The position numbers and the translations under genes were made by a program. The notes beneath the pieces are model-generated. The model ran no database searches. It worked only from the letters and a program-made list of their open reading frames with translations, and was not told the DNA's origin. 37,985 nt of DNA, taken from Candidatus Giovannonibacteria bacterium RIFCSPHIGHO2_02_FULL_45_13 (GTDB lineage Bacteria > Patescibacteriota > Minisyncoccia > UBA11713 > 2-01-FULL-45-33). Shown piece after piece: positions 27,689 through 30,578 of this stretch. How positions within the stretch are numbered: the stretch's first letter is position 1; each line of letters begins with the position of its first letter. The stretch is taken from NCBI GenBank assembly GCA_001778635.1, contig MFHO01000019.1:1-37985 (forward strand), given 5' to 3'.

Positions 27689-28096
27689 TCAAGTATCTAG
27701 AATCACATTTTCCAGCATCCTAATCCTGGCCTTTTTGCGCCCAAAATCCAAGAAAACGGCAGCGATGTCTATTTGAAAATCTGTTTCGTCAGGCATTTTT
27801 CTGTCCAATAGATATGTGCGGATAGCGCGGCTCAGCCTTTGTTTTTTCCAAAGACGAATATTTGCTTCGGGCAAATATTCGTCTTTGCCCTCCGAAGCTT
27901 TAGCGTAGGAGGGTCTTACTGTTAGCGCCTTCACCTCCACAAAATGCAAAACGCCGTCCAGCTCCGCCACAATATCAATCTCCCCCCATTTTTTCCGATA
28001 ATTTCTCTCAATAATCTTATACCCCTTCCCTTCCAAAAAACTTGCCGTCAATTCTTCCCCAAGATTCCCCGTCTTTTGTTTTTCGGTTTGAGGCAT
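27689..28096 (-). CDS. yraN: YraN/UPF0102 family endonuclease-like protein
   Basis: GNLGEE...L..KGYKIIERNYRKKWGEIDIVA...FVEVK. Confidence 0.9.
   Translation of the reverse strand: MPQTEKQKTGNLGEELTASFLEGKGYKIIERNYRKKWGEIDIVAELDGVLHFVEVKALTVRPSYAKASEGKDEYLPEANIRLWKKQRLSRAIRTYLLDRKMPDETDFQIDIAAVFLDFGRKKARIRMLENVILDT
27884..27913. repeat. 30-bp hairpin element in frame inside yraN
   Basis: TTTG-CCCTCC-GAA-GCT-TT-AGC-GTA-GGAGGG; encodes PSYAKASEGK. Confidence 0.75.
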
Positions 28097-28287
28097 TGGC
28101 TAAAGCGTAACAAAATGCATAATTAAAACCAGATTAAGGAGGGCTTGTGGAATTGTTTTCGAAAGATCTTGAGACAGCGTAAGAAATTGTTGAGGAATTA
28201 AATGAAATTGTAGGAATTTACAAAGCCATTCTCGAAAGAGAAACGAGCGAGAAAATTGCCTATTTTGAGCTTCTTTTTGCGCATAAT

Positions 28288-28677
28288 ATGGCGCCTTTAA
28301 GCAAAATCGGGCTTTGGATGTCAGCCGAATTTTTCCAAGACACCTTTCTTGATTTTTGGAAAGATCGCGAAATACAGAGTTATGCGACATGGCGGCAAAT
28401 CGCAGCAATGGCCTCCCTGCTCTGGCTTTGGCTAATAGCAAATGAGCATAAGCTGAATTTAATAGAAACGACTTTCTTAAAAGACCAAAAAGCGCGCTTA
28501 TTTTTCCTGATTCCGGATTTGCTTGAGAAACAACAAATCTCTCCTTACGTAAAAAATCCCCATTTTGGCGCAGAAATCCAGTTTGACGAATTGAAATTTG
28601 CCTCAAGATGTTTATTTCAAGCTCTAACAGAAGACCAAGAAGACAAACAAGAAAATCAAAAGGCCCTGCTGCATTAA
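28288..28677 (+). CDS. Hypothetical protein
   Basis: 129-aa ORF convergent with the next gene at a shared hairpin (about 28659-28690); start uncertain. Confidence 0.5.
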   Translation: MAPLSKIGLWMSAEFFQDTFLDFWKDREIQSYATWRQIAAMASLLWLWLIANEHKLNLIETTFLKDQKARLFFLIPDLLEKQQISPYVKNPHFGAEIQFDELKFASRCLFQALTEDQEDKQENQKALLH

Positions 28678-28994
28678 GCCGGGCCTTTTTCATCATTCTG
28701 CCAGCAAATTTTGGCTGGCTTGGCGATAATTTGCCAACTTTTCCATTTCTCAAACTGTTCTTGCGTTGCGGTTTTGAGCGTTGGCCCCCCGAATGCAAAA
28801 GCAATGTACTTATATTGGATTTCCATCTCGCCACTATCCTTATTTTTCTTTTCAACGACCTGATAAAAAACATGCCCATTTTTAACCTCACCGCCGCTTC
28901 CTTGCGGCATGCTTGATCCGAATGCGTCTTCGTGAAGCTCAACGGCGGGGTTGATGATAACCTCATTGCCATTTTCCTGTTTCACATACCACAT
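28674..28994 (-). CDS. Hypothetical protein
   Basis: AAGGAGG RBS; TTGACT-17-TAATTT promoter. Confidence 0.65.
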   Translation of the reverse strand: MWYVKQENGNEVIINPAVELHEDAFGSSMPQGSGGEVKNGHVFYQVVEKKNKDSGEMEIQYKYIAFAFGGPTLKTATQEQFEKWKSWQIIAKPAKICWQNDEKGPA

Positions 28995-29114
28995 TTTCGT
29001 GCCTCCTTATTTTTTAGATTTTGAACTCTTCAACTCAAAATTATCACAACCACGCTCAAAAGTCAAATTTGAGAGCTAAATTTGAAAATTAATGACTTCG
29101 TAAGTCCTTAATTT

Positions 29115-30443
29115 CTATAATTCTTCCAAAATCCTCTCCCTTAATCCATCAAAACCCCTACAAGACATAATTATTATCACGTCATTAGGCTTAACGTCAT
29201 GTTTCACATGAAACAATAGCTTTTCCAAGTCATCAAACGATTTGGCTTGCGTACCGAGCCTATTAAGCTCTTTGGTTATATGTTTCACATGAAACACCTC
29301 ATCGGCTTTAAGGCTATCGGCTTTGTACGGCTTGTATAGATAAACAATATCAGCGCGCCGAAATGCCTCAACATATTGCTTCTCAAAGATTCGACGCTTG
29401 GACGAGGCCGATCCTGGTTCAAACATTAAGAATAGTCGTGAAGCATGAAACTTGGAGCGTAAGGCCATCAATGTTTCACGGACAGCTGTAGGATGATGAG
29501 CGTAATCATCAATCACGGTTATTCCATGTTTCACACCTATAATTTCTGATCGGCGTTGCACGCCTCTAAAGCTGGCAATGGCCTTTTTGATTGTTTCATG
29601 TGAAACACCAATGAATCTGGCCACAGCCGTAGCGGCTAGAATATTGTTGGTAATATAATCAGCACGTTTTGCTCCAAATAGTTTCACGCTTGTCCGCCGA
29701 AGCTTTAGCGAAGGCGGATGAAACTTGCTTACCAGCTCCATCACGTTTTTATCATGCTTATTAGCAACCAAAAGACCATTTTTGGGTATCAAATTTATGA
29801 AACGCGCAAAAGCGTATTTGTAAGCCTCAATATCTTTATAAATATCCACGTGGTCGAGCTCGATATTGTTGATTACTCCGATAAATGGTCGGTAATGCCA
29901 AAATTTAGGGCTTTTATCAAAAAACGCCGTGTCATATTCATCACCCTCTAAAATAATATATTTGCCTTTGCCAAGCTTAAAACTTGAATTGAAATTATTA
30001 GCCACACCACCAACGAAAACGGTCGGATCCAACTTCGCGCATTCTAATATCCAACTCACTAACGCTGTGATAGTTGTTTTACCGTGTGTACCAGTTATTA
30101 CAACAGGTTTTTTTCTGCCAGCTGGCAGATCTATAAATTCGTCCAATAGAATATCGGACATTGACCGATATAGATGTCCGATAGACATTATATATTCGAG
30201 TTCTGGATTGCCGCGGCCGATTGCATTGCCAACAACCACAACGTCTGACCGCCAATGTTTCATGTGAAACTTCGAATACGGCGTAAAAATCTTAATTTTT
30301 AGCCTCTCTAGCATGCTTTTCATCGGTTCATACATTTCTTGGTCAGATCCGGCCACTTCATAGCCTTTTGCTTTTAACAGCCCGGCCAAACTCGCCATCG
30401 CCACCCCGCCTATGCCAATTAGATAAAACCTCTTTTTTCTCAT
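29115..30443 (-). CDS. mpl: Murein peptide ligase Mpl (MurC-like Mur ligase)
   Basis: GIGGVAMASLA..L...G..V.GSD, GNAIGRGNPE, TGTHGKTT, EGDEYDTAFFDKSPKF, NNIELDHVDIY, GVQRR, DDYAHHPTAV. Start placed at ATG 30443, with TATTAT 6 nt upstream. Confidence 0.85.
   Translation of the reverse strand: MRKKRFYLIGIGGVAMASLAGLLKAKGYEVAGSDQEMYEPMKSMLERLKIKIFTPYSKFHMKHWRSDVVVVGNAIGRGNPELEYIMSIGHLYRSMSDILLDEFIDLPAGRKKPVVITGTHGKTTITALVSWILECAKLDPTVFVGGVANNFNSSFKLGKGKYIILEGDEYDTAFFDKSPKFWHYRPFIGVINNIELDHVDIYKDIEAYKYAFARFINLIPKNGLLVANKHDKNVMELVSKFHPPSLKLRRTSVKLFGAKRADYITNNILAATAVARFIGVSHETIKKAIASFRGVQRRSEIIGVKHGITVIDDYAHHPTAVRETLMALRSKFHASRLFLMFEPGSASSKRRIFEKQYVEAFRRADIVYLYKPYKADSLKADEVFHVKHITKELNRLGTQAKSFDDLEKLLFHVKHDVKPNDVIIIMSCRGFDGLRERILEEL
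29200..29215. promoter_or_regulatory. parS: parS-like site
   Basis: TGTTTCACATGAAACA versus the parS consensus TGTTTCACGTGAAACA. Confidence 0.8.
29281..29296. promoter_or_regulatory. parS: parS-like site
   Basis: TGTTTCACATGAAACA. Confidence 0.8.
29592..29607. promoter_or_regulatory. parS: parS-like site
   Basis: TGTTTCATGTGAAACA. Confidence 0.8.
29689..29718. repeat. 30-bp hairpin element in frame inside mpl, splitting a parS palindrome
   Basis: CTTG-TCCGCC-GAA-GCT-TT-AGC-GAA-GGCGGA; the flanks rejoin to AGTTTCACGTGAAACT. Confidence 0.8.
30256..30271. promoter_or_regulatory. parS: parS-like site
   Basis: TGTTTCATGTGAAACT. Confidence 0.75.
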
Positions 30444-30578
30444 GTATAAATAATAACAAAAAAGCGCTCCGACTACTGTCGAAACGCTTATTTTCTCTAA
30501 CACAATCAGATTTTGGCTTGCCCGCCATCTGATCTATGCTTTCCTTTGGCATCCACGACCTTGGTCGGGACCCTCCGG

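Follow-up and report, generated by a model that had tools for sequence, protein, structure and literature searches.

A 30-nucleotide tagged hairpin in two Patescibacteria genes as a probable minimal mobile element

The locus analysed here, a window of 37,985 nucleotides from the 0.83-Mb (833,541-bp) genome of an ultra-small groundwater bacterium (labelled G000 in our genome sets), raises the question of how two unrelated genes each came to carry, in frame, a version of the same short hairpin. Copy 1 occupies positions 27884–27913 of the + strand, where a TTTG foot (27884–27887) precedes the hairpin CCCTCC-GAA-GCT-TT-AGC-GTA-GGAGGG (27888–27913), and copy 2 occupies positions 29688–29718 of the same strand, where a GCTTG foot (29688–29692) precedes the hairpin TCCGCC-GAA-GCT-TT-AGC-GAA-GGCGGA (29693–29718). 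The sequences and coordinates of the original prediction, which had described two 30-nt units with outer stems that differ yet still pair, were verified, and in both units a (G)CTTG foot leads into a 6-bp stem, followed inwards by GWA/GWA internal loops and closed by a GCTTTAGC cap. In general terms, the (G)CTTG tag stands before an imperfect hairpin of 26 nt, in which the 6-bp stem is GC-rich, the internal loop is a 3×3 purine loop, the inner stem is 2–3 bp long and the tip is TTTA or CTTG. Among 34 copies from the same family a GCTTG consensus foot stands 5′ of the hairpin, a tag that is neither GTAG nor CGTC, and the + strand of the element folds more stably than the − strand (−6.7 versus −4.6 and −5.6 kcal/mol). 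Contigs from four metagenomes part from the window precisely at 29687–29689 and 29718–29720, which places the limits of the repeated unit where they had originally been drawn; the 30 nt inserted at copy 2 correspond to either 29688–29717 or 29689–29718, a one-base boundary ambiguity.

Both copies lie antisense within genes of the − strand, the names of which come from an earlier reading of the sequence alone. Copy 1 falls within a yraN-like gene (UPF0102 nuclease-like, 135 aa; 27689–28096) and is translated as PSYAKASEGK, in the context RPSYAKASEGK, while copy 2 falls within an mpl/murC-like ligase gene (29115–30503; a 462-aa ORF with a GTG start, whose real start the orthologues suggest to be near MRKKRFYLIG) and is translated as PPSLKLRRTS, in the context HPPSLKLRRTS. 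The two products correspond to different reading frames of the element. Orthologues of the yraN-like gene occur in 17 of the 20 genomes of the family set, with G000 counted; the element is absent in 13 of 15 orthologues and present at the same protein loop in G000 and G017, and the G000 product is exactly 10 aa longer than those of G009 and G006. In the predicted YraN structure the only segment with pLDDT below 50, residues 62–72, coincides with the copy 1 insert, in agreement with the proposal that the element adds a peptide to a protein loop, here a low-confidence surface loop.

The mpl site offers a closer view of the insertion. The element is present in the mpl genes of G000 and G015 and absent from 12 other orthologues, and at the point where copy 2 sits the genes of G012 and G013 carry a different hairpin of 39 nt. 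Copy 2 lies at the dyad centre of a split 14-bp palindrome (29681–29724) with half-sites GTTTCAC (29681–29687) and ATGAAAC (29718–29724), and together with these flanks it folds as DNA into one longer hairpin (−10.7 kcal/mol, z = −2.96). Intact GTTTCAYRTGAAAC palindromes, which serve as a model for the uninterrupted copy 2 target, occur at 29201–29214, 29282–29295, 29593–29606 and 30257–30270; these four are the only ones in the genome, all within mpl, and the palindromes encode FHVKH, FHMKH and VSHET motifs. The claim that the empty mpl site can be rebuilt exactly stands in part: deleting 30 nt restores the palindrome that is found intact four other times in the gene, but an exact empty allele occurs in none of 14 orthologues, and the rebuilt site is one that we infer. 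No target duplication was seen at this site, as had been stated. Contigs of the four metagenome runs, which end at the element, contained no empty allele, excision product or junction skipping either element, a negative that weighs little because contigs drop rare variants.

Dispersal of the hairpin became evident once its whole structure was searched for. The 14-nt core by itself gave two matches in the window, which 27 of 100 shuffles equalled (≤2 mismatches) and which is not significant. The full structural pattern, N6-GWA-N3-TT-N3′-GWA-N6′ with arms required to pair, gave seven matches in the 833,541-bp genome versus none in the reversed genome, and five alternative loop choices gave 0–2 matches each. 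The genome search that had been proposed for further copies yielded seven canonical copies and two variants in the source genome and more in relatives, with 44 copies in 14 of the 20 genomes of the family set (reversed-pattern control, 0) and approximately 509 copies in 173 of the 401 genomes of the class set (reversed-pattern control, 1). Copy number is low and dispersed, at 2–17 per genome. Across the 34 family copies, 97.4% of cells are paired compared with 84.2% in shuffles and double-change cells number 45 compared with 15.3, values reached by 0 of 500 shuffles; pairing was imposed by the retrieval pattern at two outer positions and in some of the inner stem, and the covariation is carried by the unforced columns 6–31, 9–28 and 10–27 and by the partly forced 17–20.

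Presence and absence at orthologous sites, which the alignment of orthologues was proposed to reveal, is seen not only at yraN and mpl but also in RNase P RNA and in a uracil-DNA glycosylase gene. The element lies antisense in the RNase P RNA, where a 29-nt block is missing from all four relatives compared, with no target duplication at this rnpB site, and in the glycosylase gene it is present in G000, G001 and G003 and absent from nine others, with a net gain of 5 aa rather than 10. Among the copies read, six lie on the same strand as the host gene and eight on the opposite strand, all four open frames are used, and other copies lie in leaders and intergenic DNA. Mixed orientation together with the use of all four open frames implies that neither a peptide nor a sense RNA is what is constrained, and the dispersed family, its covarying stems and its occurrence in several frames and on both strands bear out the view that the constraint acts on the nucleic acid. 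Many copies are within ORFs in the Patescibacteria family sampled. Stem variants common to several copies of one genome, such as CCGAC/GTCGG in 10 of 17 copies of G405, CCTGC/GTAGG in 5 of 15 of G304 and CCTTC/GAAGG in 5 of 6 of G028, show that lineage-specific stems multiply within genomes. Tandem arrays of 30–31-nt units occur.

The exact 26-mer of the mpl copy was found in at least 120 contigs from many phyla and the reversed 26-mer in none. Hosts among the matches listed include Alphaproteobacteria (Bradyrhizobium isolates included), Bacteroidota, Planctomycetota, Acidobacteriota, Verrucomicrobiota, Omnitrophota, Bdellovibrio, Gammaproteobacteria and Patescibacteria. In 15 cross-phylum copies the flanks are unrelated apart from the CTTG foot, and the copies inspected outside Patescibacteria are intergenic, directly after genes or next to tRNA genes. 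The element is peculiar neither to the source genome nor to coding DNA. An assembly or contamination artefact was considered for the cross-phylum copies, and the differing flanks and the cultured isolates argue against it. The collections searched gave no evidence of a phage or plasmid vector, with no match among phages and, among plasmids, only six partial Thermus megaplasmid matches (23 nt, E = 0.1). A literature search found no paper that describes the element or contains any of four core strings, and none that links in-frame palindromic elements to Patescibacteria/CPR; it did not extend to the supplementary lists of intragenic REPs in PMC3733652 and of motifs and homologues in PMC11893778, in which the motif might occur.

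Taken together, we consider it probable that both sequences are copies of a non-autonomous mobile mini-element of approximately 30 nt, and a mini mobile element of the REP/SDR kind is the most likely identity. The proposal of a tiny non-autonomous mobile family holds with respect to dispersal and to gain and loss at orthologous sites but not with respect to a link to HUH enzymes. The element would move as, or into, single-stranded DNA by means of a hairpin-specific enzyme supplied in trans, in a manner that may be likened to REP/REPIN sequences, IS200/IS605 ends or Ssn-type motifs, and would leave no target duplication. In gene-dense Patescibacteria the surviving copies would be those that landed in permissive places, among them leaders, variable hairpins in structured RNAs (RNase P, for example) and reading frames, in which the element may be tolerated as an extra surface loop. 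Persistence in reading frames is possible because 30 nt equal 10 codons and four of the six frames are open.

Several known systems share parts of this behaviour. SDRs of Nostocaceae are reportedly 21–27-nt hairpin repeats that occur in genes and RNA genes, sometimes nested, with no known transposase. Compared by this description rather than by sequence, they resemble the element as hairpin repeats in genes and RNA genes with nested copies, but SDRs come from one cyanobacterial lineage whereas the element spans many phyla. RPE-1 elements are approximately 100–150 bp long and restricted to Rickettsia. Rickettsia palindromic elements are, like the present element, palindromic and in frame in conserved housekeeping genes with a predicted added surface segment, whereas the element, 30 nt long and pan-bacterial, matches them in neither size nor host range.

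Di Nocera et al. 2013 (PMC3733652) cover GTAG- and CGTC-tagged REPs and intragenic REPs, with in-frame intragenic copies known in Opitutus terrae and Rickettsia conorii, and also name the Rickettsia palindromic elements. The element resembles REPs and REPINs in being a short, imperfect palindrome that has G–T stem pairs and carries a conserved unpaired tag on one side, in its occurrence as singles, inverted pairs and clusters, and in its intragenic in-frame copies. It differs from them in its CTTG tag, in place of GTAG or CGTC, and in its 2–17 copies per genome, often in ORFs, whereas REPs number in the hundreds and are mostly extragenic; it is also letter-identical across many phyla, which is unusual for REPs, as these are lineage-specific. 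No RAYT gene of the source genome is bracketed by the element, and its RAYT-like genes resemble subclass 2.1, for which the published work on REPs and RAYTs (PMC3733652; Quentin et al. 2018, PMC6006769) found no REPs. The latter paper summarises IS200/IS605 subterminal hairpins and their PATE/MITE derivatives; the element shares with IS200/IS605 a hairpin adjoining a short conserved cleavage tag and insertion without target duplication, but has neither paired left and right ends nor strand bias, and it differs from MITE and IS derivatives in its lack of target-site duplication at the mpl and rnpB sites. NTS/dRS3 and Ssn-related motifs, as described by Chenal et al. 2025 (PMC11893778), are tagged hairpins of approximately 30 nt that occur in many phyla and are bound as single-stranded DNA by the Ssn GIY-YIG nuclease. 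The likeness here lies in the size and tagged hairpin, the GNA-type loops, the many phyla and, in the Ssn system, a small enzyme encoded elsewhere, but the published HGTCWY...RNCYNB motif is unmatched by eye, as the element has no GTC tag, and the loops differ. In B. betae a copy occupies the loop of a hairpin of the CGTC type, which indicates that the two hairpin kinds are distinct. We tentatively raise the possibility that the CTTG-tagged 30-nt hairpin forms a class of minimal mobile DNA of its own, with loops and cap, and often the stem, constant in at least nine phyla, inserting without target duplication and often in hairpin tips and reading frames, whose mover would be neither a bracketing RAYT nor Ssn but possibly a conserved host nuclease or an unrecognised single-stranded DNA transposase.

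The alternative that survives best, although we think it unlikely, is that host replication or repair duplicates the hairpin from copies already present, preferentially at palindromes and hairpin tips, through template switching or ectopic copying of short patches, with no dedicated transposase. Insertion at hairpin tips and palindrome centres fits such copying: copies are nested into other hairpins, both at the mpl dyad and in the B. betae loop, the element's own cap can receive other hairpins, and tandem arrays form. Along two single-contig genomes, G096 and G405, + and − copies interleave without strand bias, which is a poor fit to a strict lagging-strand mechanism of the IS608 type and, together with the low copy number, is compatible with host copying. 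No cognate enzyme gene was found at the Y1 or GIY-YIG loci examined. A co-occurring nuclease flanked by the hairpin had been envisaged, and none was found at the three small GIY-YIG genes inspected in G000, which are flanked by tRNA genes and other hairpins; the GIY-YIG hits of this genome also include a fourth (L326) and one of 446 aa (L327). Template switching, however, needs microhomology flanking the donor, whereas the copies have unrelated flanks; host copying also leaves unexplained the entry of an identical unit into so many phyla, and the conserved CTTG tag outside the hairpin resembles a recognition or cleavage tag.

It is rather improbable that the hairpin is a functional cis-element, that is, a site for a widely conserved DNA- or RNA-binding protein, with copies in genes retained by selection as functional rather than selfish sequences. 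Strong conservation of loops and cap across phyla while the stems co-vary would be expected of such a site, the same protein loops are hit in different lineages (yraN in G000 and G017, mpl and the glycosylase), and copies outside Patescibacteria stand directly after genes or by tRNA genes. Against this reading, copies point both ways with respect to their host genes and are read in four frames, the RNase P copy is antisense and missing from the RNase P of all four relatives, the closest relatives lack the element at the same sites, and its positions within genes and leaders are inconsistent. Nor does the hairpin match an Rfam family in the window, in Bradyrhizobium, in Mesorhizobium or at the other loci; the sole overlap, with BjrC68, scores 13 bits against a gathering score of 39.

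Mobilisation by HUH enzymes of the RAYT type, part of the original prediction, fared poorly, and a strict REP family moved by one of the RAYT-like (TnpA-Y1) enzymes of these genomes is a very unlikely explanation. The tag and imperfect palindrome have the architecture of a REP, and the 0.83-Mb source genome encodes eight Y1_Tnp (RAYT-like) genes, but the hairpin lies within 1.5 kb of none of them. Different palindromes of their own stand on both sides of at least six of the eight, and on one side of one more, and such private palindromes also spread as solo copies (one lies at 29093–29107 of the window). A hand tally of genomes G000–G100 counted 41 with both element and Y1 gene, 10 with the element only, 24 with Y1 only and 26 with neither; the association in this tally is positive (odds ratio of approximately 4), but across the class it is modest and confounded by phylogeny, and 10 of 51 element-bearing genomes have no Y1 hit. 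The near-complete genomes G029 and G041 carry three and eight copies, respectively, with no Y1 hit, whereas G025, G123, G180 and G253 have 8–9 Y1 genes each and no element. In five copy-rich genomes no Y1 gene is bracketed by the element, the nearest neighbours being approximately 1.6 kb (a copy on G304:C14), 3.6 kb and 6.8 kb away and the rest further. Other candidate partners were rejected. The G304:C14 copy, whose Y1 neighbour is a classical IS200-type tnpA unrelated to it, is in frame inside a NifS-like gene; two 23S-IVS-protein cassettes (PF05635) in the source genome have AT-rich palindromes in their flanks, where this hairpin is lacking; the span between two copies on G304:C17 contains no long ORF and no Rfam hit; and a 223-aa zinc-ribbon-like protein encoded between copies in G405 has one copy directly after its stop codon, which is not a transposase layout.

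Chance similarity or an ancestral conserved peptide, to which the insignificance of the 14-nt core within the window might have pointed, is refuted, with negligible probability left to it, by the empty controls (one match class-wide), the different frames and strands, and the orthologues without the inserted peptides.

The probable mobile mini-element is tiny, sharply defined and distributed very widely, and its insertion sites, in two proteins and one ribozyme RNA, are clean. With it the mobility of repeats below 50 nt can be tested directly, as a 30-mer oligonucleotide serves as substrate and there are only a few candidate enzymes, all of them small. The element accounts for many odd low-complexity peptides, such as EALAKE, SFSEGG, AKASEGK and SLKLRR, in predicted proteins of uncultured bacteria, and it disrupts metagenome assemblies. 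For Patescibacteria, small lineage-specific insertions in proteins and RNAs would stem at least partly from mobile hairpins.

Both 30-nt sequences of the original prediction lie in the window as it described them, at 27884-27913 and 29689-29718 on the + strand, and inspection of the window sequence confirmed their reading. Each is antisense to and inside a gene on the - strand, a yraN-like gene (27689-28096, 135 aa) and an mpl-like gene (29115-30503, 462 aa), where the translations RPSYAKASEGK and HPPSLKLRRTS place them in different frames, as claimed. The 14-nt core alone has no significance within the 38 kb of the window. For the structural pattern N6-GWA-N3-TT-N3'-GWA-N6' with paired arms, a scan of the source genome (833,541 bp, 36 contigs, 44% G+C; the window is its contig C19) returned seven copies versus none in the reversed genome and 0-2 for five other loop choices, a genome-wide result that bears out the proposal of a dispersed family. 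Two more variants are present in this genome, one in the RNase P RNA gene and one on contig C32 with a 3-nt tip.

Aligning 34 family copies (the family is here equal to the order) gave the consensus GCTTG-CCCNCC-GAA-GCT-TT-AGC-GAA-GGNGGG. The retrieval pattern for these copies fixed two outer pairs and, in part, the inner stem; paired cells reached 97.4% versus 84.2% in shuffles and double-sided change cells numbered 45 versus 15.3, values attained by none of 500 shuffles, and pairing fell to 27-58% when the partner column was slid by 1-3. The covariation lies in three free column pairs, 6-31 (CG 22, UA 8, GC 2), 9-28 (GC 14, UA 14) and 10-27 (CG 24, AU 2, UA 2, GC 1, unpaired 5), and in the partly forced pair 17-20 (UA 20, CG 12). 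DNA folding of both window copies gave -6.7 kcal/mol for the GWA-loop strand and -4.6 and -5.6 kcal/mol for the complementary strand. The cap is modular: a scan in which the two GWAG boxes could be 7-36 nt apart recovered 18 additional family copies (control matches, 0) with cap tips ranging from GCCTATGGC up to 20-nt hairpins, and two family copies have a second hairpin nested within a canonical cap.

Host-protein names were read from the sequences by inspection. In the source genome, the element is internal and on the opposite strand to the gene in yraN (PSYAKASEGK), mpl (PPSLKLRRTS) and a DprA-like gene (PSFTKATEGK), and internal on the same strand in a family-4 uracil-DNA glycosylase-like gene (PSEVLTKEGK). 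It also occupies the N-terminus of a ribonucleotide reductase-like ORF (SSSEALAKEDR, same strand), which may be a 5' leader, a prepilin-like leader (RPTSLKLRRP, opposite strand), a position outside the ORF 18 nt 5' of the ATG of an isochorismatase-like gene, and, antisense, a 106-nt expansion of a variable hairpin in RNase P RNA. Among eight other family loci it falls within conserved ORFs at four (PAP2-like, AEALAKAG; HolB-like, RSLGEGG; Pth, PAFAKASAGK; GrpE, RRSFSEGG), while two have no ORF of at least 90 aa and two are probably leaders or doubtful ORFs. Since all four stop-free frames and both orientations are used, the constraint is on the nucleic acid.

Comparison of orthologous sites upheld presence and absence of the element. 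A 29-nt block of the source genome's RNase P RNA is a clean gap in all four relatives compared (G012, G015, G008 and G001). In yraN, 13 of 15 orthologous sequences are without the element; the closest YraN (G012, 81% identity) is 11 aa shorter at the site, and the source protein is exactly 10 aa longer than those of G009 and G006. In a further comparison genome, G017, a copy of its own (PAFAKASSGK) occurs at almost the same codon, and G008 has an equal-length but unlike segment there. The insert, between a strand and a helix, forms the sole segment (residues 62-72) with pLDDT below 50 in the YraN AlphaFold model (mean 76.9). At the mpl site, the element recurs in G015 in the same position (PPTLKLRRAG), its 24-nt core differing by a single change; exactly that point is taken by a different 39-nt hairpin in G012 and G013 (identical locus), and the local FH..VK context is missing from the other 12 orthologues. 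In the glycosylase, PSEVLT(K/E)EG is common to the source genome, G001 and G003 and missing from nine others; the length differs by a net +5 aa, so this site is not a simple insertion.

Other oddities were seen at these loci. Mpl of the family is full of other small lineage-specific in-frame inserts (alignment of window 29115-30443 with loci L044-L057), including AWPSKPWRSRQQ and AYAKASADKHK in G001, PPKASAFRRASQTAKLLAG in G003 and F[SAKGGPASGR]HVKH in G016, and a ~55-aa segment present in others is missing from the source genome, G012 and G015. The mpl loci and neighbouring genes of G012 and G013 (L043, L044) are identical across different genus labels, which suggests a shared or mis-binned contig. 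Between mpl and yraN the window has ~1 kb (28100-29000) with two small ORFs (28288-28677, +; 28674-28994, -); this distance is <100 nt in G001, G002 and others. RNase P RNAs (L009 1755-2207, L328-L331) carry further hairpin inserts: a GCAGCAACCAGC-type insert lies at different places in the source genome and G012, and elsewhere in the RNA an insert of G015 combines the same outer module (CCCGCC-TTC...TTC-GGCGGG) with a different cap, the G008 insert at that position being a different hairpin.

The mpl copy is flanked by GTTTCAC and ATGAAAC, and removal of the 30 nt yields GTTTCACATGAAAC. This 14-bp palindrome (GTTTCACATGAAAC / GTTTCAYRTGAAAC) has four sites in the whole source genome, all within mpl (29201-29214, 29282-29295, 29593-29606 and 30257-30270), besides the split form at 29681-29724; copy and palindrome flanks together fold as one longer hairpin (-10.7 kcal/mol, DNA folding). 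The claim of an exactly rebuilt empty site thus stands in part: excision restores an intact palindrome and the window sequence has no target duplication, but an empty palindrome at this position was seen in no orthologue compared, so that we infer the allele only. Insertion into hairpin tips recurs: a CGTC-tagged hairpin of Bradyrhizobium betae carries the element in its loop, and other hairpins lie within the element's own cap. The GTTTCAYRTGAAAC palindrome itself encodes a recurrent FH(V/M)KH motif; every listed match in 15 of 20 family genomes is in or beside the mpl-yraN locus, and in G019 it lies directly 5' of yraN, where the mpl query found no mpl. It appears to be private to this locus and may be connected with the nuclease-like YraN protein.

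The element extends far beyond the family. We counted 44 matches in 14 of 20 family genomes (control, 0) and about 509 in 173 of 401 genomes of the class (control, 1). With one genome per species, an exact 18-mer matched at least 120 contigs, as did an exact 26-mer of the mpl copy (reversed 26-mer, 0). By record titles, the matches listed include Bradyrhizobium isolates (betae, sacchari, cosmicum, jicamae and others), Xanthobacteraceae, Sphingorhabdus, Bacteroidales, Rikenellaceae, Chitinophagaceae, Flavobacteriales, Planctomycetota, Acidobacteriota, Verrucomicrobiota, Omnitrophota, Bdellovibrio, Gammaproteobacteria, and Doudna- and Jorgensen-bacteria. Fifteen cross-phylum copies have nothing in common beyond the unit, save an exact CTTG foot in seven. 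Copies are intergenic at three non-Patescibacteria loci inspected, and two others adjoin tRNA genes. Genomes hold few copies: three Bradyrhizobium genomes of ~8.7 Mb each have 2-5, a Rikenellaceae genome of 4.1 Mb has 11 and a Planctomycetota genome of 4.2 Mb has 17. A single stem variant is often dominant within a genome, and there are tandem arrays of period 30 or 31 nt as well as larger composite repeats. Contigs from four metagenomes (soil or groundwater) cover the mpl copy at a summed depth ~15-110x that of adjoining bins, and many of them depart from the window sequence precisely at the edges of the copy. Among the composites, a ~100-nt unit of two different inverted variants occurs twice, in opposite orientations, in G096 (L071, L072; C1 about 430.6 kb and 617.6 kb), and a Planctomycetota genome (L302, G405) has a ~110-nt-period tandem array joining the element to a GTAG-tagged palindrome.

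These data support the mobile mini-element reading; the proposed link to HUH enzymes was not supported. Eight Y1_Tnp matches, seven of them above cut-off, occur in the source genome; their ORFs encode 210-244 aa, carry NH(Y/F)H and YIHxNP motifs and represent eight divergent RAYT-like genes (L062-L069; contigs C18, C35, C4, C15, C17, C10, C34 and C22) that by these features fit TnpA-Y1 subclass 2.1 in the retrieved text of Quentin et al. (PMC6006769). None of the eight has the element hairpin within 1.5 kb; instead, at least six have private palindromes of their own on both flanks and one more has one on a single flank. One such palindrome, KGACTT-NNN-AAGTCM, is found four times in the genome: three sites are on C18 (21920-22669), where one RAYT-like gene has the palindrome on either side and within it, and a solo site is in the window at 29093-29107, just 3' of the mpl stop codon. 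Y1 is present in 249 of 401 class genomes, and a hand tally of G000-G100 (both 41, element only 10, Y1 only 24, neither 26) shows an association that is modest, confounded and with clear exceptions. As for small GIY-YIG (Ssn-type) nucleases, no gene inspected in the source genome is flanked by the element hairpin, and the element is without the GTC tag of the Ssn motif in the retrieved text of Chenal et al. (PMC11893778). One such gene, on C23, adjoins a tRNA gene, with a partial tRNA duplicate 5' of it (L325 1340-1830), and is inserted beside the tRNA; on C10, too, a GIY-YIG gene lies directly next to a tRNA. A phage collection gave no match to the element and plasmids only weak Thermus megaplasmid matches, and + and - copies are interleaved along two single-contig genomes.

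RPEs are palindromic elements that also lie in frame inside genes, and SDRs are reportedly hairpin repeats also found inside genes. Intragenic in-frame tagged palindromes are known among REPs as well, according to the retrieved text of Di Nocera et al. (PMC3733652), and the kind of element is therefore not new. We found no paper with the core strings or with such elements in Patescibacteria, although supplements of two papers might contain them. What differs here is the CTTG-tagged unit with GWA/GWA loops as such; it is further set apart from known kinds by its nesting into hairpin tips, by having no bracketing enzyme gene, and by its presence, letter for letter and in few copies, across many phyla.
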